Positions 1-16,533 of a stretch of DNA of 64,000 nucleotides are shown here, piece after piece. The notes beneath the pieces were generated by a model. That model did no database searches. It was not told the DNA's origin and saw nothing but the letters and a program-made list of their open reading frames with translations. The translations under genes and the position numbers were made by a program. Source of the stretch: Eledone cirrhosa (taxonomy: Eukaryota); contig OZ024747.1 in the NCBI GenBank assembly GCA_964016885.1, positions 12,152,001 through 12,216,000 on the forward strand, read 5' to 3'. Each line of letters starts with the position of its first letter. Position 1 is the stretch's first letter.

Positions 1-70
1 TATAGGAAAAGGTATGACCCCGACGGCAGAGCTCAAGCCGTTTCGACGGCTATTTCTGAACTAAATTAGA

Positions 71-109
<39 letters not shown>

Positions 110-258
110 CAGCATTAAACATCAGTTTTTTGCTTGCACTATATATACAGAGGGGTTTATAATAGTTGTACTGACTGAAGACAGGAACATTTAGCAGTGT
201 AGTAGAGTGTATACTATTTCTATAATTGGTACAAATTGAAGAGAGGAGCAGGCAACAG

Positions 259-384
<126 letters not shown>

Positions 385-389
385 ATAGA

Positions 390-560
390 AGATCACACCA
401 CCTAGCTTTGACTTTGGAGGCAGTCGATTAACTGCCCTTAGTTATGACATCAGTAGCTGAATACACACCAACTTGAAAAGAGTGTGTATTCAGCTACTGA
501 CGTCAGAACTAAGGGCAGTTAATTGCCTGCCTCCAAAGTCAAAGATAGGTGGCGTGATCT
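390..560. mobile_element. Fold-back element, ~78-bp imperfect inverted arms, between (TA)n/(TG)n tracts
   Basis: gatcacaccacctagctttgactttggaggcag...gctgaatacacac (391-468) is the reverse complement of gtgtgtattcagctact...ggtggcgtgatc (482-559), with a few mismatches. Confidence 0.7.
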
Positions 561-1204
561 ACATATATATATTTATTTATAGAGAGAGGAGTGAAGATAT
601 TTGACCAAGAGACTGTGGTACGAACCAGAAAGTTTTCAAAAAATAGCCAGTAGACACAACATTACAATAACATGCTACAAATATGATATATTAAGTGGTG
701 GTGTGTGGTGTGTGTGTGGTGTGGTGTGTGGTGCGTGTGTGGATTAAGAGCTTCCTTCAGTCATAACTGACCATGAGTTTGCACCTAGAAAGTTCCTCTC
801 AAAGGCACAATCATGGACATGGTGTTTAACGAAAGACCAGCAGTCACCCATACATACCATTCTCCCCTCCCCCATGCCACACATCTTGTCCAAGGGAAAG
901 GCAAAGGCTGATACAACTTGACAAGTATCATCAACAGATGAACTTAGAACGTGAGGGGCTGAAAGAGATACAAAGTATCATGCCCGAGACCAACAATTCT
1001 GCCAACCTACTGCCAGTGGACTGGTAATTTATCAACCCCAAAAGGCTGGAAGGCAAAGTTGACCTTGGTAGGTTTTTAACTCAGAGCAGAGAGACCCAGA
1101 ACAAATACTGCAAAGCATTTCCATCTGACACTCCAACAATTCTGCCAATTCAATACCTAGTGGATGTGTGCATATATATATATATATATGATTTCATTTT
1201 GATG

Positions 1205-1529
1205 ATTTCATTTTACGTCCGCTTTTCCCTGCTTGCAAGGGTGGGACGGGAACTGATTCTGGCTTGATTTCTACAGCTGGATGCCCTTCCTAACACCAAC
1301 CTCATTTACAGTGAGTGCTGGGTGCTTTTTTGCCGTGGCACCTCCACAACCCCTTTGCAGTGGAATGATATGGACCCCAGTCCTATCATCTCATTTCTAC
1401 AGCTGAGTAAACTGGAGCAATGTGAAATAAAGTGTCTTGCTCAAGGAAACAACACATCACCCGGTCTGAGAATTGAACTCACAACCTTTCGATTGCAAGG
1501 CCAATGCTCTAACCACTAAGCCATGTGCC
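1205..1529 (-). mobile_element. tRNA-derived SINE with RTE-like 3' tail (family copies at ~13230-13432, 24917-25125, 53795-54122, 62700-62963)
   Basis: Minus-strand head GGCACATGGCTTAGTGGTTAGAGC...GAGTTCAATTCTC with A/B-box-like motifs; tail GGAAAAGCGGACGTAAAATGAAAT(GAT)n; several near-identical dispersed copies. Confidence 0.85.
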
Positions 1530-1725
1530 TTTATATATATATATCCCTTCCATATACTGTACCGATTGTGTTGTTATTTCTGTTTACCTTTTACATATAT
1601 ATATATATATATATACACACACATACACACACACACACACACATATATATTGATATGTGTGTATGTGCACATATGCACGTTAATGTACATGTGTTTGAGT
1701 GTGTGAGTGTGTATAACATAAATAA

Positions 1726-2116
1726 CATAAATACATGAAAACATGCATCAGTGAACAAGCCATCTATCATTTCCTCACAGAAAAGACTACAATTGTGAGG
1801 TGACCTTGAAGTGACCTTGACATTAACATTAAACTAAGATCAATGATATATAAAGATGTCATAACATGAACCAGGCAGTTAGAGAGAGAGAGAGAACAGA
1901 GTGGTCAATACTGACCAGAGACTCAGTGTCAGACCAATACATTGGTCAAGTCACTCTTTACTTACCGTACGACCATGGCTGTCCACTATAGTAATCTACA
2001 CAATGAGAAAATGGGGTCTAGTGGTAACAATAGACTGTGGGAGGTTATAGAGACTGTGTGGGACTGGGGATAACAATAGGGGGACGTTTAACAGTTATGT
2101 AGAGTTAACAACAGTG
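1726..2116. repeat. ~390-bp near-identical duplicate of 11501-11904, containing the 30-nt exon cassette
   Basis: Direct comparison: the visible differences are (AG)n length with a short adjacent indel and two substitutions (gtaacaatag/gtaataatag, gggacgttta/gggacattta). Confidence 0.95.
1966..1995 (-). CDS. AFDN: Candidate 30-nt microexon, copy A (ITIVDSHGRT in phase 0)
   Basis: Same splice signals and sequence as 11753-11782. Confidence 0.6.
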
Positions 2117-2633
2117 GAAAGGTTAATAACAAAAAGAAGGTAACATACATTTAACAAGGGAAGGTTAACAACAGGAGTGGTTAGTAATTGGGAAAGTTTA
2201 ACAAAAGGAAGACATTTAATAATTAGGTAATGTTCAGAAAGGGGTTAACAATAGGGAGGTTGACAGACAGTATTTAACAACCGTGAAATTATGAACAGTG
2301 ACCAGATACAGGTACACCCCTGATTTTCCAGTGTCCTTGGTTCCAGACTGCTGCCAGATTATCTGTTTTGAAGGACAATATAATCACTCCCTAGAACTAT
2401 ATTACAAAGTTGATAACACTCTCCCTACACCACAACTATAATTGTATTAAGATGTAAATGTTTAAGATTATATTTAACATCATGTGTTAGCCTCCTAGCA
2501 TGAATTAACTAGTCTGGTGGAAGATGGTAAATTCAAGTAAGCATTCACTTATAATTACAACTGGATAAATAGATGTACTAAACCACCAGTTGCTGGAAAA
2601 TAGGTGTTATACCTGTAACATATATTTAACAGT

Positions 2634-3488
2634 GTTAACAACAGTGGGAAGGGTTAACAACAGTGGGAAGGGTTAACAACAGTGGGAAGGGTTAACAACA
2701 GTGGGAAGGGTTAACAACAGTGGGAAGGGTTAAGAACAGTGGGAAGGGTTAAGAACAGTGGGAAGGGTTAACAGCTGTGGGAAGGGTTAACAGCTGTGGG
2801 AAGGGTTAACAACAGTGGGAAGAGTTAACAGCAGTGGGAAGGGTTAACAGCTGTGGGAAGGGTTAACAACAGTGGGAAGGGTTAACAACAGTGGGAAGGG
2901 TTAACAACAGTGGGAAGGGTTAACAGCTGTGGGAAGGGTTAACAGCTGTGGGAAGGATTAACAGCTGTGGGAAGGGTTAACAGCTGTGGGAAGAGTTAAC
3001 AGCAGTGGGAAGGGTTAACAGCTGTGGGAAGGGTTAACAACAGTGGGAAGGGTTAACAACAGTGGGAAGGGTTAACAGCTGTGGGAAGGGTTAACAGCAG
3101 TGGGAAGGGTTAACAGTTGTGGGAAGGGTTAACAGCTGTGGGAAGGGTTAACAACAGTGGGAAGGGTTAACAGCAGTGGGAAGGGTTAACAACAGTGGGA
3201 AGGGTTAACAACAGTGGGAAGGGTTAACAGCAGTGGGAAGGGTTAACAACAGTGGGAAGGGTTAACAACAGTGGGAAGGGTTAACAGCTGTGGGAAGGGT
3301 TAACAGCAGTGGGAAGAGTTAAAAGCATTGGGAAGGATTAAGAACAGTGGGAAGGGTTAAGAACAGTGGGAAGGGTTAAGAACAGTGGGAAGGGTTAAGA
3401 ACAGTGGGAAGGGTCAACAACAGTGAGAAGGGTCAACAACAGTGGGAAGGGTCAACAACAGTGGGAAGGGTCAACAACAGTGGGAAGG
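2634..3488. repeat. Minisatellite, 19-bp unit GGGTTAACAACAGTGGGAA, ~45 copies
   Basis: Direct tandem periodicity with variants (aacaac/aacagc/aagaac). Confidence 0.97.
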
Positions 3489-3789
3489 AACATATAGGTA
3501 TTTTGTGTAACATTCTTTAGTGACAGGGGTGGGGGCAGGGGGCAGGAAATAGAGTGATACATGTGACAGGAAGGGAAAAGAAAGAGTAGAGGAGACAGAG
3601 ACAGTGAAAGTGAGATAGGAGGGAGAGAGGGTGAATGAATAGAAAAGAAGGAAAAGGTAGAGGAATGCCTAACAAGACATTCCAAGAAAAGATGGAGAGA
3701 TGAAGAGATAGACTAAGTTTTTTATGGTTATATTGGTCATACATTAGTGAAGATAGGAACAGGCAACAGTATGTAGTATCTTAAATATA

Positions 3790-6700
3790 CTAGTTACTAG
3801 TTCTATAGTTGGTACTAACTGAAAAGAGGTACAGGCAACAGTGCATGTAGAATCCTATATATACTAGTTCTATAGTCAGTACTAACAGAATGCAGGTGCA
3901 AGCAACAATGTACGGTGAATCCTATATATACCAGTTACTAGTTCTATAGTTGGTACTAACTGAAAAGAGGTACAGGCAACAGTGCATGTAGAATCCTATA
4001 TATACTAGTTCTATAGTCAGTACTAACAGAATGCAGGTGCAAGCAACAATGTACGGTGAATCCTATATATACCAGTTACTAGTTCTATAGTTGGTACTAA
4101 CTGAAAAGAGGTACAGGCAACAGTGCATGTAGAATCCTATATATACTAGTTCTATAGTCAGTACTAACAGAATGCAGGTGCAAGCAACAATGTACGGTGA
4201 ATCCTATATATACCAGTTACTAGTTCTATAGTTGGTACTAACTGAAAAGAGGTACAGGCAACAGTGCATGTAGAATCCTATATATACTAGTTCTATAGTC
4301 AGTACTAACAGAATGCAGGTGCAAGCAACAATGTACGGTGAATCCTATATATACCAGTTACTAGTTCTATAGTTGGTACTAACTGAAAAGAGGTACAGGC
4401 AACAGTGCATGTAGAATCCTATATATACTAGTTCTATAGTCAGTACTAACAGAATGCAGGTGCAAGCAACAATGTACGGTGAATCCTATATATACCAGTT
4501 ACTAGTTCTATAGTTGGTACTAACTGAAAAGAGGTACAGGCAACAGTGCATGTAGAATCCTATATATACTAGTTCTATAGTCAGTACTAACAGAATGCAG
4601 GTGCAAGCAACAATGTACGGTGAATCCTATATATACCAGTTACTAGTTCTATAGTTGGTACTAACTGAAAAGAGGTACAGGCAACAGTGCATGTAGAATC
4701 CTATATATACTAGTTCTATAGTCAGTACTAACAGAATGCAGGTGCAAGCAACAATGTACGGTGAATCCTATATATACCAGTTACTAGTTCTATAGTTGGT
4801 ACTAACTGAAAAGAGGTACAGGCAACAGTGCATGTAGAATCCTATATATACTAGTTCTATAGTCAGTACTAACAGAATGCAGGTGCAAGCAACAATGTAC
4901 GGTGAATCCTATATATACCAGTTACTAGTTCTATAGTTGGTACTAACTGAAAAGAGGTACAGGCAACAGTGCATGTAGAATCCTATATATACTAGTTCTA
5001 TAGTCAGTACTAACAGAATGCAGGTGCAAGCAACAATGTACGGTGAATCCTATATATACCAGTTACTAGTTCTATAGTTGGTACTAACTGAAAAGAGGTA
5101 CAGGCAACAGTGCATGTAGAATCCTATATATACTAGTTCTATAGTCAGTACTAACAGAATGCAGGTGCAAGCAACAATGTACGGTGAATCCTATATATAC
5201 CAGTTACTAGTTCTATAGTTGGTACTAACTGAAAAGAGGTACAGGCAACAGTGCATGTAGAATCCTATATATACTAGTTCTATAGTCAGTACTAACAGAA
5301 TGCAGGTGCAAGCAACAATGTACGGTGAATCCTATATATACCAGTTACTAGTTCTATAGTTGGTACTAACTGAAAAGAGGTACAGGCAACAGTGCATGTA
5401 GAATCCTATATATACTAGTTCTATAGTCAGTACTAACAGAATGCAGGTGCAAGCAACAATGTACGGTGAATCCTATATATACCAGTTACTAGTTCTATAG
5501 TTGGTACTAACTGAAAAGAGGTACAGGCAACAGTGCATGTAGAATCCTATATATACTAGTTCTATAGTCAGTACTAACAGAATGCAGGTGCAAGCAACAA
5601 TGTACGGTGAATCCTATATATACCAGTTACTAGTTCTATAGTTGGTACTAACTGAAAAGAGGTACAGGCAACAGTGCATGTAGAATCCTATATATACTAG
5701 TTCTATAGTCAGTACTAACAGAATGCAGGTGCAAGCAACAATGTACGGTGAATCCTATATATACCAGTTACTAGTTCTATAGTTGGTACTAACTGAAAAG
5801 AGGTACAGGCAACAGTGCATGTAGAATCCTATATATACTAGTTCTATAGTCAGTACTAACAGAATGCAGGTGCAAGCAACAATGTACGGTGAATCCTATA
5901 TATACCAGTTACTAGTTCTATAGTTGGTACTAACTGAAAAGAGGTACAGGCAACAGTGCATGTAGAATCCTATATATACTAGTTCTATAGTCAGTACTAA
6001 CAGAATGCAGGTGCAAGCAACAATGTACGGTGAATCCTATATATACCAGTTACTAGTTCTATAGTTGGTACTAACTGAAAAGAGGTACAGGCAACAGTGC
6101 ATGTAGAATCCTATATATACTAGTTCTATAGTCAGTACTAACAGAATGCAGGTGCAAGCAACAATGTACGGTGAATCCTATATATACCAGTTACTAGTTC
6201 TATAGTTGGTACTAACTGAAAAGAGGTACAGGCAACAGTGCATGTAGAATCCTATATATACTAGTTCTATAGTCAGTACTAACAGAATGCAGGTGCAAGC
6301 AACAATGTACGGTGAATCCTATATATACCAGTTACTAGTTCTATAGTTGGTACTAACTGAAAAGAGGTACAGGCAACAGTGCATGTAGAATCCTATATAT
6401 ACTAGTTCTATAGTCAGTACTAACAGAATGCAGGTGCAAGCAACAATGTACGGTGAATCCTATATATACCAGTTACTAGTTCTATAGTTGGTACTAACTG
6501 AAAAGAGGTACAGGCAACAGTGCATGTAGAATCCTATATATACTAGTTCTATAGTCAGTACTAACAGAATGCAGGTGCAAGCAACAATGTACGGTGAATC
6601 CTATATATACCAGTTACTAGTTCTATAGTTGGTACTAACTGAAAAGAGGTACAGGCAACAGTGCATGTAGAATCCTATATATACTAGTTCTATAGTCAGT

Positions 6701-7850
6701 ACTAACAGAATGCAGGTGCAAGCAACAATGTACGGTGAATCCTATATATACCAGTTACTAGTTCTATAGTTGGTACTAACTGAAAAGAGGTACAGGCAAC
6801 AGTGCATGTAGAATCCTATATATACTAGTTCTATAGTCAGTACTAACAGAATGCAGGTGCAAGCAACAATGTACAGTGAATCCTATATATACCAGTTACT
6901 AGTTCTATAGTTGGTACTAACTGAAAAGAGGTACAGGCAACAGTGCATGTAGAATCCTATATATACTAGTTCTATAGTCAGTACTAACAGAATGCAGGTG
7001 CAAGCAACAATGTACGGTGAATCCTATATATACCAGTTACTAGTTCTATAGTTGGTACTAACTGAAAAGAGGTACAGGCAACAGTGCATGTAGAATCCTA
7101 TATATACTAGTTCTATAGTCAGTACTAACAGAATGCAGGTGCAAGCAACAATGTACGGTGAATCCTATATATACCAGTTACTAGTTCTATAGTTGGTACT
7201 AACTGAAAAGAGGTACAGGCAACAGTGCATGTAGAATCCTATATATACTAGTTCTATAGTCAGTACTAACAGAATGCAGGTGCAAGCAACAATGTACGGT
7301 GAATCCTATATATACCAGTTACTAGTTCTATAGTTGGTACTAACTGAAAAGAGGTACAGGCAACAGTGCATGTAGAATCCTATATATACTAGTTCTATAG
7401 TCAGTACTAACAGAATGCAGGTGCAAGCAACAATGTACGGTGAATCCTATATATACCAGTTACTAGTTCTATAGTTGGTACTAACTGAAAAGAGGTACAG
7501 GCAACAGTGCATGTAGAATCCTATATATACTAGTTCTATAGTCAGTACTAACAGAATGCAGGTGCAAGCAACAATGTACAGTGAATCCTATATATACCAG
7601 TTACTAGTTCTATAGTTGGTACTAACTGAAAAGAGGTACAGGCAACAGTGCATGTAGAATCCTATATATACTAGTTCTATAGTCAGTACTAACAGAATGC
7701 AGGTGCAAGCAACAATGTACGGTGAATCCTATATATACCAGTTACTAGTTCTATAGTTGGTACTAACAGAACACAAGAGCAAGCAATAGTGTCTGGAGAA
7801 TCCTATATATACTAATTCTATAGTTGGTACTAACTGAAAAGAGAATCAGG
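3790..7850. repeat. Highly homogeneous 141-bp tandem satellite (~28 copies) built from two related ~70-bp subunits
   Basis: gaaaagagg recurs at 3821, 3962, 4103 and onward; both subunits share ctagttctatagt..gtactaac.gaa...gcaaca.tg...gaatcctatatata. Confidence 0.97.
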
Positions 7851-8284
7851 CAACAGTGTATGTAGAATATTATATATAGCAATTCAAATGATGGTACAAA
7901 CTTGAGACAGGAGGAAACAGCAGGTGTGTGTGTTTGTGTGTGTGTGTGGGTGTGTGTGTGTGCATGTGTGCGCGCACGCATGCATGTGTGTATCACCATA
8001 TAACATCAAATTTTCCACACTAGCATGGGTTAGATAAGTTGTCCGGTTGTGAGAAAAGTCTAATCAGATGACCATATCTTGCTCACACAGAATTGTTTCT
8101 AGCTTGGTGTCTAAGGCTGGATGCTCTTCCTAACACCAACCACATTTACAGTGTGGACTGGGTGCTTTTTGTTGTGGCACCAAAACAACGGGAGAGAGAG
8201 ACAGAGAGAGAGAGAAAGAGAGAGAAAGAGAGAGAAAGAAAGAGAGAGAAAGAAAGAGAGAGAAAGAGAGAGGGAGAAAGAGAG

Positions 8285-8329
<45 letters not shown>

Positions 8330-8467
8330 GAGAGAGAGAGAGAGAGAGTAACTTGTACTAGTTCTGTATTTTCTGAAAACATTCGACCAAAATTCAGTGA
8401 CAGAAATAGATAGATTTCAGAAAGTTTACTAAAAATTGACACAACATGACAATAAGATGCTATAAAT

Positions 8468-10760
8468 TATGTGTGTGGGAGTATGAGTATGTGTGTGGGA
8501 ACATGAGTATGTGTGTGGGAACATGAGTATGTGTGTGGGAGTATGAGTATGTGTGTGGGAGCATGAGTATGTGTGTGGGAACATGAGTATGTGTGTGTGG
8601 GAGCATGAGTATGTGTGTGGGAGCATGAGTATGTGTGTGGGAGCATGAGTATGTGTGTGGGAACATGAGTATGTGTGTGGGAGCATGAGTATGTGTGTGG
8701 GAACATGAGTATGTGTGTGGGAACATGAGTATGTGTGTGGGAGTATGAGTATGTGTGTGGGAGCATGAGTATGTGTGTGGGAGCATGAGTATGTGTGTGG
8801 GAGCATGAGTATGTGTGTGGGAGCATGAGTATGTGTGTGGGAGCATGAGTATGTGTGTGGGAGCATGAGTATGTGTGTGGGAGCATGAGTATGTGTGTGG
8901 GAACATGAGTATGTGTGTGGGAGTATGAGTATGTGTGTGGGAGCATGAGTATGTGTGTGGGAGCATGAGTATGTGTGTGGGAGCATGAGTATGTGTGTGG
9001 GAACATGAGTATGTGTGTGGGAACATGAGTATGTGTGTGGGAACATGAGTATGTGTGTGGGAGCATGAGTATGTGTGTGGGAGCATGAGTATGTGTGTGG
9101 GAGCATGAGTATGTGTGTGGGAGCATGAGTATGTGTGTGGGAGTATGAGTATGTGTGTGGGAGCATGAGTATGTGTGTGGGAGCATGAGTATGTGTGTGG
9201 GAGCATGAGTATGTGTGTGGGAGCATGAGTATGTGTGTGGGAACATGAGTATGTGTGTGGGAACATGAGTATGTGTGTGGGAGCATGAGTATGTGTGTGG
9301 GAACATGAGTATGTGTGTGGGAGCATGAGTATGTGTGTGGGAGCATGAGTATGTGTGTGGGAGCATGAGTATGTGTGTGGGAGCATGAGTATGTGTGTGG
9401 GAGCATGAGTATGTGTGTGGGAACATGAGTATGTGTGTGGGAGCATGAGTATGTGTGTGGGAGCATGAGTATGTGTGTGGGAGCATGAGTATGTGTGTGG
9501 GAGCATGAGTATGTGTGTGGGAACATGAGTATGTGTGTGGGAACATGAGTATGTGTGTGGGAACATGAGTATGTGTGTGGGAGCATGAGTATGTGTGTGG
9601 GAGCATGAGTATGTGTGTGGGAACATGAGTATGTGTGTGGGAGCATGAGTATGTGTGTGGGAACATGAGTATGTGTGTGGGAGCATGAGTATGTGTGTGG
9701 GAGCATGAGTATGTGTGTGGGAGCATGAGTATGTGTGTGGGAGCATGAGTATGTGTGTGGGAGCATGAGTATGTGTGTGGGAGCATGAGTATGTGTGTGG
9801 GAGCATGAGTATGTGTGTGGGAACATGAGTATGTGTGTGGGAGCATGAGTATGTGTGTGGGAACATGAGTATGTGTGTGGGAGCATGAGTATGTGTGTGG
9901 GAACATGAGTATGTGTGTGGGAACATGAGTATGTGTGTGGGAACATGAGTATGTGTGTGGGAGCATGAGTATGTGTGTGGGAACATGAGTATGTGTGTGG
10001 GAGCATGAGTATGTGTGTGGGAGCATGAGTATGTGTGTGGGAACATGAGTATGTGTGTGGGAGCATGAGTATGTGTGTGGGAGCATGAGTATGTGTGTGG
10101 GAGCATGAGTATGTGTGTGGGAGCATGAGTATGTGTGTGGGAGCATGAGTATGTGTGTGGGAGCATGAGTATGTGTGTGGGAGCATGAGTATGTGTGTGT
10201 GGGAGCATGAGTATGTGTGTGGGAGCATGAGTATGTGTGTGGGAGCATGAGTATGTGTGTGGGAGCATGAGTATGTGTGTGGGAGTATGAGTATGTGTGT
10301 GGGAACATGAGTATGTGTGTGGGAGCATGAGTATGTGTGTGGGAGCATGAGTATGTGTGTGGGAACATGAGTATGTGTGTGTGGGAGCATGAGTATGTGT
10401 GTGGGAGCATGAGTATGTGTGTGGGAGCATGAGTATGTGTGTGGGAGTATGAGTATGTGTGTGGGAACATGAGTATGTGTGTGGGAGCATGAGTATGTGT
10501 GTGGGAGTATGAGTATGTGTGTGGGAACATGAGTATGTGTGTGGGAGCATGAGTATGTGTGTGGGAGCATGAGTATGTGTGTGGGAGTATGAGTATGTGT
10601 GTGGGAACATGAGTATGTGTGTGGGAGCATGAGTATGTGTGTGGGAGCATGAGTATGTGTGTGGGAACATGAGTATGTGTGTGGGAGCATGAGTATGTGT
10701 GTGGGAGCATGAGTATGTGTGTGGGAGCATGAGTATGTGTGTGGGAACATGAGTATGTGT
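8468..10760. repeat. Minisatellite, 20-bp unit GAGCATGAGTATGTGTGTGG, ~114 copies
   Basis: Direct periodicity with gagca/gaaca/gagta variants; source of the spurious ~800-aa ORFs. Confidence 0.98.
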
Positions 10761-10802
10761 CTATGTGATATGTTGGAGGTGTATAGTATCTCATCCTCAT
10801 TA

Positions 10803-10985
10803 TTTGGCAGTATCGGTAGAGGGTCGGACGCCATGCTTTCCAGCATGGAGTTACGGCCCTTGCCATTCTGAGTTCAAATGCCGCCGAGGTTAACTTTGCT
10901 TTTCATCCTTACGGGGGTCGATAAAATAAAGTACCAGTCATGCACTGGGTAATTGCTGGCCTTGTGCCAAAAGTAGAAACAATTA
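10803..10985 (+). mobile_element. tRNA-derived SINE with Meta/RUDI-like central domain (other copies near 16393-16843 -, 17138-17315 -, 21985-22152 -, 29820-30755 + cluster, 31048-31230 -, 48400-48590 -, 50450-50845 +, 54490-54680 +, 56315-56505 -, 58900-59090 +)
   Basis: TGGCAGTATCGGTAGAG A-box-like and GAGTTCAAAT B-box-like motifs; family core GCCTTTCATCCTT.CGGGGTCGATAAAATAAAGTACCAG resembles the MetaSINE domain. Confidence 0.85.
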
Positions 10986-11752
10986 TTTAACATACCCTTT
11001 CCAAGTTGTCATAGATTAAACAGGTCAACACCGTCAAAACCTAGACAGGTTGGAAAACCATATTTTTCTCATACATTCAATATTTTGGCATAGTTTCAAC
11101 AGCTGGATACCTTTCCTAATGCAAATCACTTTATAGAGTGTACTAGGTATATTCTATTGTAGCATCAACACTAGAGAGGTTGTCAAGTCCTCAATAGAAC
11201 ATCTTGCTTATATGTGTCCATATTCTAGTATATACTGGGTATGTTTGATACTAGCACTAGTAAGGCTGTGATGCCCTTGACACAACTTACAGGATTCCTC
11301 ACTAAATTCTTTAACAAGGCATTGGTTAGCTCTTTTAGATGACAGCTCTCTGAGGTGCCACCAATAAAAAAAAAAATGATTTCAAACCAAATTACTTAAC
11401 CACATAGTTATCTTATACCTATATATATATATGTGTGTGAGCATGTCTGTGTGTGTGAGCATGTCTGTGTGTGTCTATGCATATGTATGTATATATGTGT
11501 CATAAATACATGAAAACATGCATCAGTGAACAAGCCATCTATCATTTCCTCACAGAAAAGACTACAATTGTGAGGTGACCTTGAAGTGACCTTGACATTA
11601 ACATTAAACTAAGATCAATGATATATAAAGATGTCATAACATGAACCAGGCAGTTAGAGAGAGAGAGAGAGAGAGAGAGACAACAGAGTGGTCAATACTG
11701 ACCAGAGACTCAGTGTCAGACCAATACATTGGTCAAGTCACTCTTTACTTAC

Positions 11753-11782
11753 CGTACGACCATGGCTGTCCACTATAGTAAT
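11753..11782 (-). CDS. AFDN: Candidate 30-nt microexon, copy B (ITIVDSHGRT in phase 0)
   Basis: cccattttctcattgtgtag|ATTACTATAGTGGACAGCCATGGTCGTACG|gtaagt; consensus donor, 3n length, no stop; identical to 1966-1995. Confidence 0.6.
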
Positions 11783-12832
11783 CTACACAATGAGAAAATG
11801 GGGTCTAGTGGTAATAATAGACTGTGGGAGGTTATAGAGACTGTGTGGGACTGGGGATAACAATAGGGGGACATTTAACAGTTATGTAGAGTTAACAACA
11901 GTGGGCAGGTTAACAAGAGGAAAACATTTAACAACAGTTATGTAGGGCTAACAACAGTGGGAGGGCTAACAACAGTGGGAAGGTTAACAACAGGGAGAAG
12001 GTTAACAACAATGTAAGATTGACAACAGGAGGAATTAACGGGGTTATTTAATAGGGGGGGGGGGGGTTAAAAACAGGTAACATGGACAGTTAACAGTGGG
12101 AGAGAGGGTAACAAATGGTGATTGGGCAACAACAGTAAAGCACTGTCGGGGTATTTTCTCTGCCCTGGGTCACTACCCAGTATAAATAGGGACTCACTTT
12201 GACTGCCTACCACTACTAATTACTAACTAGTATATAACTAGTATAATACAGTCAGTAAATAAATGTTTGGTTATTACCACTACTAATTACTAACTAGTAT
12301 AACTAGTATAATATAGTCAGTGAATGAATATGTTTATTAGACAAAATAACATATCTTGTGAGATGACATTTACTCAAGTTACCATTTAGACGTGTGTGTG
12401 GTCGGTGTGTAGTATATAGCCGGGGAAAACAGACGGAAAATGATATGACTAATAGAGTTGGTATCAGGGAGAACATCCAGCTGTAAAACAGTTTCAAATC
12501 ATCACATCCGAGATTAAGCTGACCTCCTACATATGTTGTATATCATAGGTTTCATGGGTGTTTTAATGATACTGATACTTGTCCTATCATAAAATATAAC
12601 AAAAAATTGAGTGTCTTGCCCAAGACTACAATACACTGAGTGTCTTGCCCAAGACTACAATGCACTGCCTTGTACAGGCATTGAATCCATGACCTTATGA
12701 TTATAAATCCAACACTAACCAACAGGCCAAGTGGTAAATACACACACACATATATAAACACACACACAATAAATATTTGTTCTACGGATACTGAGAGAGA
12801 GAGAGAGATAGAGATAGAGAGAGAGAGAAATG

Positions 12833-12999
12833 AGTAGGACCCCGACAGCTGAGCTCAAGCCGTTTCGATGGCTAATTAGCCGTCGAAACGGCTTGACCTC
12901 AGCCGTCGGGGTCCTACTTGTTCCTATTACACACTCTGCTACCCTACATATTGAGTACTTTGATGCGTTATGGTCCATCTGGTTCCTTACCACATTTCC
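12833..12999 (+). mobile_element. Fold-back element (86-bp palindrome plus tail), Penelope-like end with a partial hammerhead-like motif; a half copy lies at ~15-52
   Basis: agtaggaccccgac...ggctaattagcc...gtcggggtcctact palindrome at 12833-12918; right arm reads GAAACGGC-ttgacctca-GCCGTC. Confidence 0.55.
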
Positions 13000-13442
13000 T
13001 TTGTTATATCATCATCATCATCATCATCATCGTTTAACGTCCATCTTCCACACTTGCATGGGTTTGGACGAGAGTTTTCCCACTTGAGGCAAGATTGGTT
13101 GTCCTGCTTGTATAGAACTGTCTGTATATATATATATATATATACAATACAATCCTTACTGAGCCCGCTTCAGATTTTGGTCTTTGTATTTATTTATTAT
13201 ACACACACATTTATATATATATCATCATCATTTTTACGTCCACTTTTCCCTGCTTGCAAGGGTGGGACGGGAACTGATTCTGGCTTGATTTCTACAGCTG
13301 GATGCCCTTCCTAACACCAACCTCATTTACACTGAGTGCTGGGTGCTTTTTTCTGTGGCACCTACACGACCACTCTGCAGTGGAATGATAGGAACCCCAG
13401 TCCCTATCATCTCATTTCTACAGCTGAGTAAATTATTATATA

Positions 13443-13970
<528 letters not shown>

Positions 13971-14137
13971 TATAATCATGTTTAACATCTTTCCACGCTT
14001 GCACGGGTTAGATGGACTGTCCACATTAAGAGAGAAGACTGGACAGTTTGCTGTACCGTACCTTTGCTCAAATGGAACAACTGTATCTTGACTGGGTTTT
14101 TTTTTTTACAGCTGGATGCCCTTCCTAACACCAAGCT

Positions 14138-14174
<37 letters not shown>

Positions 14175-14180
<6 letters not shown>

Positions 14181-14384
14181 TAAAATAACAGATTAAAGTT
14201 TAAGCAAAGAGTCGCTGCTTTCACCCTTAACGAGAAGATCCCGTTAAGGGTGAAAGCAGCGATTCTTTGCTTAAACTTTAATCTGTTATTTTAATAAATA
14301 TTTGCACTAGGGTTCTTATATATTTGATATATATTTATCCTTAACGAGCCCTCTTTGGATTTTAGTCTTCAAATTTATTATTAT

Positions 14385-14388
<4 letters not shown>
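14175..14388. mobile_element. (TA)n-embedded fold-back element of the same family as 49541-50270
   Basis: ttattaaaataacagattaaagtttaagcaaaga...cacccttaacg / cgttaagggtg...ctgttattttaataa inverted arms; tail shared with 49541-49630. Confidence 0.7.
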
Positions 14389-14433
<45 letters not shown>

Positions 14434-16059
14434 CATACATATATATACCTTTCCCCCTTTGTATTTGTCTCCTCCTTTTGTGCCCCTGTGGCTAATAAAG
14501 AAACATATCTCTATTATCATCATAATTTAATATCTGTTTTTCCTGGACCAACACTCACAAACACACACACAAGCTCACACACTCACTCACACACAAACAA
14601 ACACACACACCCACACCCACACACTAACACATGTGACTTGAAGCATGTTTGGGCAAAGCACAATTGATCTTGATAGTAATCAATCATTATGTTATGGTGA
14701 ACAAAAGATGTAAAACTGTATAGCAGCTGTGGTGTTGGTGGTGGTTGTAGTAGTAGTAGTGCCGGTAGCAGTGGTGGTAGTAGTAGTAGCAATAGTAGTA
14801 GTGATAGTAGCAATAGTAGTAGTAGCAATAGTAGTACTGGTAGTAGATATAGTAGTAGTAGCAGTGGTAGTGGTGGTGGTGGTAGTGGTAGTAGTAGTAG
14901 TAACAATAGTAGTAGTTATAGTAGCAATAGTAGTAGTGGTGGTGGTGGTAGTAGTAGCAGTAGTAGTAGCAATAGTAGTAGTGGTAGTGGTGGTGGTAGT
15001 AGTAGCAGTAGTAGTAGTAGCAATAGTAGTAGTGGTAGTAACAATAGTAGTAGTGGTGGTAGTAGCAATAGTAGTAGTAGTAGCAGTGGTAGTGGTAGTA
15101 GTAGTAGTAGCAGCAGCAGTGGTGGTAGTAGCAGTAGTAGTAGTAGCAGCAGTTTTGATACTAGAAACATTGTTTTATTGATGAAATAATAGAGTAATAG
15201 ATGTGTAATGTTAGTGTGTAATGTTTACACAGGGATGTGTAATGTTTACATATGGATGTGTAATGTTAGTGTGTAATGTTTACACATGGATCTGTAATGT
15301 TAGTGTGTAATGTTTACACATGGATATACATCCATTAGTGTGTGTCTTTATGTGGATATATAGTGTGTAATAAATGTATAATGTTATTGTGTAATGTTTA
15401 CACATTGTAATGTTTACACATTGATGTGTAATGTTAATGTGTATGAATGACGGAACACAGATGAGTTGATAGAAAACTGTGTATAAGAGGAATCAGATGA
15501 ACTGTAGAGGAGAGAGGGCCGGGGTGTCAATTGGTTAAAGAAATGTCAAACTCCTTGAAGTTGATAGAACCCATGAAAAATCACCAAGTTATCAGTTTTA
15601 TATTAAATAAATTACCGAAATAAAGATATTTGTAAAGATCCAATGGAAACACTATCTTAGCAGCTGTAAATTTTGTTTTATTTTACAAAACACCTTACAA
15701 ACATTAACAAATATATATATTGAAACAAAAAAAAAAAAAAAAAAGGATTTGTTGACTAAAATTTGTCAGAGTTCAAATGGTGCAACATATTGTAAGGAAA
15801 CTAACTCATAACATCCTGAAATGATTTAGCAGAAAATATCTAAAAATATGTTTGTTAATTCAAATGTTTGTAGTACATTTACTAGTGGACAGATCATTGA
15901 GAAAATTTGCAGTAAACTAAAGATAAATATTTTATGGGATGCAGTCATACTGCAATGATACGTTGTTATTTTGTACTTTTTCAAGAATGTCTTGCTAATA
16001 TGTTTTCATGTGGTAGAGGATGTTAAGAGTTAATAAAACATATATATTAATATATTTAC

Positions 16060-16182
16060 CTTAGCAGCAACAATACTTAGTCCTATACTTCCTTTCACCT
16101 TCTCAAAGATAACCTCTACTATTTCAGGTTCTGGTGGTAGATCATCTGGGTGTGGTACATGTCCTGCTTCCTTCTGGTGAAG
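16060..16182 (-). CDS. AFDN: Afadin exon, start of PDZ domain (betaA-betaB)
   Basis: ttatttcag|CTTCACCAG...GCTAAG|gtaaat; 123 nt, phase 0-0; LHQKEAGHVPHPDDLPPEPEIVEVIFEKVKGSIGLSIVAAK (cf. afadin EPEIITVTLKKQNGMGLSIVAAK); the rest of the PDZ domain was not found in the window. Confidence 0.93.
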
Positions 16183-16533
16183 CTGAAATAAAAATAAATA
16201 TTTAGTTAGAATTACCTATTTCTTAACCATTCTGATGCCATCCATCCATCCAGCCAGCCAGCTAACCAGAAACCACCCTTGGTTCTATGATACAAAGACA
16301 TTTGGTTTGAAGTGTTTATATTTTAATTTAAACCTTCAATCATAATTTTATGTAAACAATTTTTGTTATGTTCCAAACACCAGCTTAATAATTGTTTCTA
16401 CTTTAGGCTCAAGGCCAGCAATTACCCAGTGCACTACTGGTACTTTATTTTATCGACCCCATAAGGATGAAAGGCAAAGTCAACCTCGGCGGGATTTGAA
16501 CTCAGATCGTAAAGGGACGTAACTATGCTGGAA

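Follow-up and report, generated by a model that had tools for sequence, protein, structure and literature searches.

A probable additive pair of tandem-duplicated 30-nt cassette exons in the PDZ domain of octopod afadin

Results and discussion

Two identical 30-nt units in the intron that splits the PDZ domain

The window analysed here, 64,000 nucleotides (nt) of the 3.0-Gb genome of Eledone cirrhosa (contig OZ024747.1; G000:C7:12152001-12216000), holds an afadin gene on its minus strand. Afadin connects junctional adhesion molecules to actin. Within the intron that splits the PDZ domain of this gene lie two identical 30-nt units with splice signals, each encoding ITIVDSHGRT. That they represent a real, additive exon pair is very likely, and we consider it fairly probable overall that this tandem-duplicated cassette exon pair tunes ligand binding by the PDZ domain of octopod afadin. 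A 30-nt cassette exon would have been duplicated in tandem, and splicing would add zero, one or two copies, as in the gene models of Octopus sinensis. Each copy is predicted to make the betaB-betaC hairpin next to the peptide groove longer, which would tune binding to C-terminal ligands, most likely by weakening or re-specifying it.

The exons of the window gene match bivalve, gastropod and octopus afadins in protein order, and the remainder of the gene aligns along full-length afadin (AF-6/Canoe). The best structure matches of its PDZ exons are solved afadin/Canoe PDZ chains. A Pfam PDZ profile scan of the genome did not detect the locus because its exons are short, and protein searches using single exons yielded little. 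The exon at 16182-16060 covers betaA, the carboxylate loop and betaB of the PDZ domain. A first-pass annotation of this DNA had reported no other PDZ exon between this exon, which ends in GLSIVAAK, and the 30-nt units, and had suggested looking in the adjacent DNA for the remaining PDZ exon and for extra copies. No further PDZ exon was found before the 66-nt PDZ exon that closes the intron about 3.2 kb to the left of the window (Table 1), and no additional cassette copy was found within 200 kb on that side. Directly joined, the two flanking exons align collinearly with solved structures of the afadin PDZ domain (in 1xz9 they cover residues 6-31 and 32-51, respectively), so the unit is a pure insert in the betaB-betaC loop.

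Both units are in phase 0, free of stop codons and frame-preserving, with cccattttctcattgtgtag upstream (pyrimidines at 11 of 15 positions) and G/gtaagt downstream. The first-pass description of their sequence, positions, translation, acceptor and donor was reproduced in full. The motif G/GTAAGT occurs only twice in the 19,307-nt intron, both times at the units, and a crude splice-site scan of the intron returned one additional, weaker candidate. At least one equally good unit arose in 6.75% of 400 simulated introns of matching composition. For exon status the sequence by itself is therefore suggestive, weakly beyond chance, since the two copies are non-independent, and the case for an exon rests on the cross-species peptide match described below.

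Each unit sits in a longer duplicated cassette. Both cassette cores contain TGCATG downstream of the donor, a hexamer with a chance expectation of about 0.05 per 240 nt, which we take to be a putative RBFOX-type enhancer. Short inverted repeats are present just past each donor, at 11684-11745 and 1897-1958 (TGGTCA..TGACCA, GACCAAT..ATTGGTC), and these could be candidate RNA hairpins near the 5' splice site.

Octopod isoforms with zero, one or two copies

A region search with a bivalve afadin was evaluated for the best 120 of 2532 matches and for up to 15 members of each of 20 clusters. The 285 proteins collected include 235 in which the betaB-betaC segment could be parsed, and its length is very constant, at 7 residues in most of these. 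Among the proteins listed, 23 have the cephalopod-type GDGQMSR: 15 lack an insert, one has ITIVDSHGRT, five have ITIVDSHGRT followed by ITIVDSHGRV, and two have TKDPDYDIQK.

The RefSeq afadin isoforms X1-X7 of O. sinensis (XP_036361694.1 to XP_036361698.1, XP_029640557.1 and XP_029640558.1) resemble the window gene in the peptide, its site and the series of zero, one or two copies. Between GLSIVAAK and GDGQMSR, X5 has no copy, X3 has ITIVDSHGRT, and X1, X2, X4, X6 and X7 have ITIVDSHGRT and ITIVDSHGRV in succession. Isoforms X1, X3 and X5 are 2412, 2402 and 2392 amino acids long, and the insert gaps are their sole differences. The unit is included in six of the seven models and skipped in one, and the V-ending copy occurs by itself in none. 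The features of a cassette exon are all present, namely an acceptor, a donor, a preserved frame without stops and, in the O. sinensis annotation, both included and skipped forms. RefSeq isoforms of this kind are usually backed by transcript evidence.

The first-pass annotation had proposed either graded or mutually exclusive inclusion. Graded inclusion is seen at annotation level (X5, X3 and the other isoforms); mutually exclusive use is contradicted by the five of seven models that carry both copies, which therefore appear additive. The copies of O. sinensis differ at their last residue (T or V), which implies two genomic copies in that species too. In E. cirrhosa, unlike O. sinensis, both copies end in T and the cassette cores are 99.5% identical. 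The O. sinensis isoforms also vary in how many units of a GPPHQ repeat follow the PDZ domain.

Isoforms with zero, one and two copies are thus already in the automatic annotation of O. sinensis, which is not a study, and no printed description of the microexon pair in the afadin PDZ domain was found in the literature searched (mostly outside subscription journals). The main text of one octopus microexon paper mentions none of afadin, AFDN, canoe or PDZ; its supplements could list the exon.

Presence of both copies in the genome

In a genome search that skips very common words, exactly two matches were obtained for each of two separate parts of the cassette. A dispersed repeat or transposon fragment was ruled out by these two matches per part. 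The second copy could in principle be an assembly error in which two haplotypes were placed in tandem, and the near identity of the cores, a 9.8-kb repeat-rich spacer that is hard to assemble and the lack of a bridge between the copies in any contig examined would all fit. Contigs were compared from three DNA-like runs of one sample, which is possibly the assembled one, so they serve as a check of the assembly and not as independent support. Contig depth, which according to the tool's own warning is not copy number, was 9.23, 12.5 and 13.1 over the shared core versus 4.88, 5.63 and 5.8 over a single-copy exon. All three core contigs end at 11904, the point where the copies diverge, and at 11815 and 11873 they carry the copy-2 bases in two runs and the copy-1 bases in one. 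Based on the roughly twofold depth, the break at 11904, both allele sets in one sample and the differing flanks, an assembly duplication was judged unlikely. Considering also the two copies in another species, we find a misassembled second copy, or a cassette that is a dispersed repeat, scarcely credible. Thus neither of the outcomes that the first-pass annotation had named as refuting the pair, an assembly duplication or a genome-wide dispersed repeat, was borne out.

History of the duplication

In a FastTree phylogeny of 18 sequences, built from 12 exons (769 residues) with Lingula as the root, E. cirrhosa falls among octopods, outside the clade of O. sinensis, O. vulgaris and O. bimaculoides (support 0.99); its branching relative to Argonauta has a support of 0.62. 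Over the 769 aligned residues it is 95.3% identical to O. sinensis and 94.4% to Argonauta.

Elsewhere in the gene, a 24-nt AG..GT unit at 47473-47450 (minus strand, phase 1) encodes EKESEQTE. It is likely a second alternative afadin microexon, the counterpart of an AKVSEQIE segment that is absent from O. sinensis isoform X2. The PDZ insert of E. cirrhosa is identical to the two O. sinensis copies at 10 of 10 and 9 of 10 residues, against 5 of 8 for this 24-nt exon, and such cross-species conservation points to selection on the PDZ unit.

The two cassettes differ by two substitutions (11815 T / 2028 C; 11873 A / 2086 G) and by 12 nt of (AG)n length. Such similarity raises the alternative that one microexon is functional and that the second copy here is recent, neutral and independent of the O. 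sinensis duplication, with double inclusion being incidental. Differences at 2 of 392 core positions, sharp edges next to microsatellites and an intron rich in expanding tandem arrays are all compatible with this, as is the last residue, which differs between the copies in O. sinensis and not between those here. Against it, E. cirrhosa and O. sinensis, which belong to different branches, both have two copies, and the two-copy form accounts for five of the seven O. sinensis models. Furthermore, nearly locus-specific 18/19-nt repeats flank both copies: those near copy 1 are 76-87% like the array beside copy 2, and 15 of the 16 exact genome matches of the 17-nt core of that array are at this locus. 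The repeats near copy 1 are likely the trace of a larger, older duplication. We therefore regard a recent neutral copy as unlikely. Because two copies are found in both species, with cores 99.5% alike and flanking repeats 76-87% alike, an older, larger duplication with a core homogenised by gene conversion is the simplest reading; independent duplications in the two species are possible. The interval between the copies is largely taken up by three large tandem arrays, with units of 19, 141 and 20 nt.

Table 1. Features of the intron that splits the afadin PDZ domain. Positions are those of the window; positions with the prefix L003 lie to its left.
Feature	Position	Strand	Details
Upstream afadin PDZ exon	16060..16182	-	123 nt; phase 0 end; peptide ends KGSIGLSIVAAK (GLSIVAAK)
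Intron splitting the PDZ domain, in-window part	1..16059	-	total 19,307 nt; ends ~3.2 kb left of the window, L003:6753
Microexon copy 1 (first in transcript order)	11753..11782	-	ITIVDSHGRT; TAG acceptor, G/GTAAGT donor
Microexon copy 2	1966..1995	-	sequence identical to copy 1; O. sinensis equivalent reads ITIVDSHGRV
Duplicated cassette around copy 1	11501..11904	-	404 nt; TGCATG ~230 nt past donor
Duplicated cassette around copy 2	1726..2117	-	392 nt; TGCATG ~220 nt past donor
Next PDZ exon (GDGQMSRGIYIKSVVPGGAAAL)	L003:6752-6687	-	66 nt; 3248-3313 nt left of window base 1
Following exon, DGRLQAGDQLL	L003:6264-6191		downstream of the 66-nt PDZ exon
19-nt tandem array	2634..3488	.	45 units; upstream of copy 2 in transcript sense
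Degenerate 18/19-nt repeats	11877..12034	.	upstream of copy 1; 76-87% identity to the 19-nt array
141-nt tandem array	3778-7838		x28.8, 99% match; between the copies
20-nt tandem array	8468-10760		x114; between the copies

Predicted structure and ligand binding

The AlphaFold2 model of the one-copy O. sinensis domain has a mean predicted local distance difference test (pLDDT) score of 85. In this model betaB (19-29) continues through ITIV, DSHGR forms the turn and betaC begins early (35-49). The two-copy model keeps the PDZ core intact with a low-confidence insert, and afadin/Canoe PDZ structures are the best structural matches of both models. We are moderately confident that one copy would extend the betaB-betaC hairpin beside the peptide groove. 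A hairpin that folds back into its own groove was considered; by secondary structure and confidence, the one-copy model continues betaB instead.

The closest precedent is the PDZ2as form of PTP-BL/PTPN13, where, in the part of the source available (PMC4365404), splicing likewise adds a short in-frame insert to the beta2-beta3 (betaB-betaC) loop. There, five residues at the start of the loop cut the association rates of PTP-BL PDZ2 nearly tenfold. The solved PTP-BL chains 1gm1 and 1ozi show this five-residue difference before betaC, and in the predicted afadin models, as in PDZ2as, the insert lies in the betaB-betaC loop and the fold is kept. Unlike the single PTP-BL insert, which displaces a GG hinge, the afadin unit is 10 residues long, follows AAK and comes in two stackable copies. 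The loss of binding in PDZ2as is a measured one, according to the same portion of that paper, whereas the binding effect in afadin rests on analogy. By this analogy we lean slightly towards an insert that tunes the binding of C-terminal ligands, most likely by weakening or re-specifying it.

Alternatively, the insert could itself be a PDZ ligand, with ITIVD and the tight turn acting as a beta-finger that would occupy the groove of a different PDZ domain or close that of its own domain. The insert has T at position -2, V at position 0 and D at position +1, which resembles ligands of Canoe/afadin, namely IREIIV and Bcr (Thr at -2; PMC8590279, as far as its accessible text goes). Similarly, in the accessible text of PMC2891790, the internal ligand of Pals1 that binds Par6 has Asp at +1 and the nNOS beta-finger is a precedent, both sharing with the afadin unit a strand and tight turn with V followed by D. 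The one-copy model predicts the motif residues to lie on a protruding hairpin. The loose motif occurs in about 5% of random 10-mers and the strict motif in 0.5%. However, the motif was spotted post hoc, the secondary-structure string of the one-copy model continues betaB through ITIV with no fold-back into its own groove, and the TKDPDYDIQK insert of the other cephalopod group is without the motif. The afadin motif differs from these internal ligands, as the same text describes them, in that it would be located in the betaB-betaC hairpin and splicing would supply it; the likeness is one of motif resemblance. A role as an internal ligand seems quite improbable to us, and a longer hairpin beside the groove is preferred.

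The arrangement also resembles tandem duplicated exon substitutions, in which homologous exons lie in tandem within one intron interval (PMC9741552, in the part available). As described there, such substitutions swap diverged exons, whereas the afadin copies are identical, optional and co-included, and what varies is copy number rather than sequence. The afadin pair shares the homologous tandem exons of that class. It departs from it in that both copies are used together (five of the seven O. sinensis models) and in that the peptides are not distinct, the units being identical in E. cirrhosa and one residue apart in O. sinensis.

Evidence weighing against the exon pair and its use in E. cirrhosa

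Several results weigh against an additive exon pair that tunes binding. The O. sinensis evidence consists of RefSeq proteins and their names, at annotation level, and the reads behind them were not seen. The unit is skipped in the models for O. vulgaris (one), O. bimaculoides (three) and Argonauta (one); this does not mean that it is missing from the genomes of these animals. Neural microexons of the SRRM4/eMIC type are usually at most 27 nt long and have UGC near the acceptor. The afadin unit is like them a short, frame-preserving exon on a protein-interaction surface; at 30 nt it is above their limit, and no TGC occurs in the 60 nt before the acceptor, so in these two features it does not fit the class. 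In the AlphaFold2 models, confidence in the insert is low to moderate, with blockwise pLDDT values of 76 and 58 for the one-copy domain and of 73, 62 and 46 for the two-copy domain. Flies with the Canoe PDZ domain deleted are viable and fertile (PMC8590279, in the portion available), and any effect on binding may therefore be modest or subtle. Finally, run X4, which was taken as RNA-like solely because its contig spans an exon without introns, contains a contig (4033 nt, depth 21.7) that matches only 16059-16184, with no mismatch. The match extends one base past the exon, and this base is G as in the skip junction, whereas the unit begins with A. This single RNA-like sample thus implies the skip form.

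No contig of run X4 lies on the microexon, which for one RNA-like sample is not evidence of absence; contigs drop minor splice variants. Inclusion in E. cirrhosa would probably be tissue-restricted, given that skipping is implied by the only transcript contig observed. The implied skip junction also speaks for the alternative that in this species the units amount to splicing noise or to relics that are silent or nearly so, and are used only in other octopods; it would also fit that no RNA dataset on record is listed for E. cirrhosa. Nevertheless, the perfect donor, the intact acceptor, the preserved frame and the exact peptide match to O. sinensis argue against relics, and the single sample and the loss of minor variants from contigs limit what the skip form says. 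We hold this alternative to be highly improbable.

Inserts at the same site in other lineages

Other afadins carry inserts at the same PDZ site; the search query itself had a long insert there, which favours such matches. An unrelated insert of the same length as the octopod unit, the 10-residue TKDPDYDIQK, is present in two of the eight listed members that reach the PDZ domain in a cephalopod-like cluster of transcript assemblies. In the tree this cluster is sister to octopods at about 80% identity, and it is therefore probably squid or cuttlefish. No homolog of TKDPDYDIQK with splice signals was found in the whole 19,307-nt intron of E. cirrhosa. Rodent models carry an optional 31-residue insert: it is present in all six beaver isoforms fetched and in nine of the 15 members listed for a kangaroo-rat/pocket-mouse/gopher cluster. 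In turn, CEFQ is an optional insert in three of the five listed Littorina members. The last residue of the Littorina and rodent inserts is Q, and alternative acceptors, rather than cassette exons, could account for them.

The start of the rodent insert has D-T/S-E-G-R, resembling the octopus turn D-S-H-G-R, possibly by chance. Oysters and the pearl oyster have a loop that is longer by a fixed two residues. At the site, three fish gene predictions have TMWFSVVGRKDQ in common, which hints that the intron holds a conserved exon as yet unannotated. Being possible gene-prediction errors, the long inserts in models of fish, dog/fox and Tegillarca were excluded as support.

A bolder scheme, which we regard as doubtful, would join these observations into a three-step dial. 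Gene conversion would keep the two microexons identical, and they would add 0, 10 or 20 residues to the betaB-betaC hairpin, forming a beta-finger that re-routes PDZ binding. Inserts of unrelated sequence would have arisen independently in the same intron in another cephalopod group as well as in beaver and kangaroo-rat-type rodents, so that the loop would be a point of convergent splice control in afadin.

Implications for afadin in octopods

The importance of the pair is bounded by isoforms that already stand in automatic annotation, by a function argued from analogy and by a fly PDZ domain that is dispensable for viability. A splice switch that works through exon copy number rather than a swap of sequence would be unusual, and zero, one and two copies would provide a clean graded series for the control of PDZ binding by a loop. 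Repeated unrelated inserts at the same intron across lineages suggest an overlooked regulatory site.

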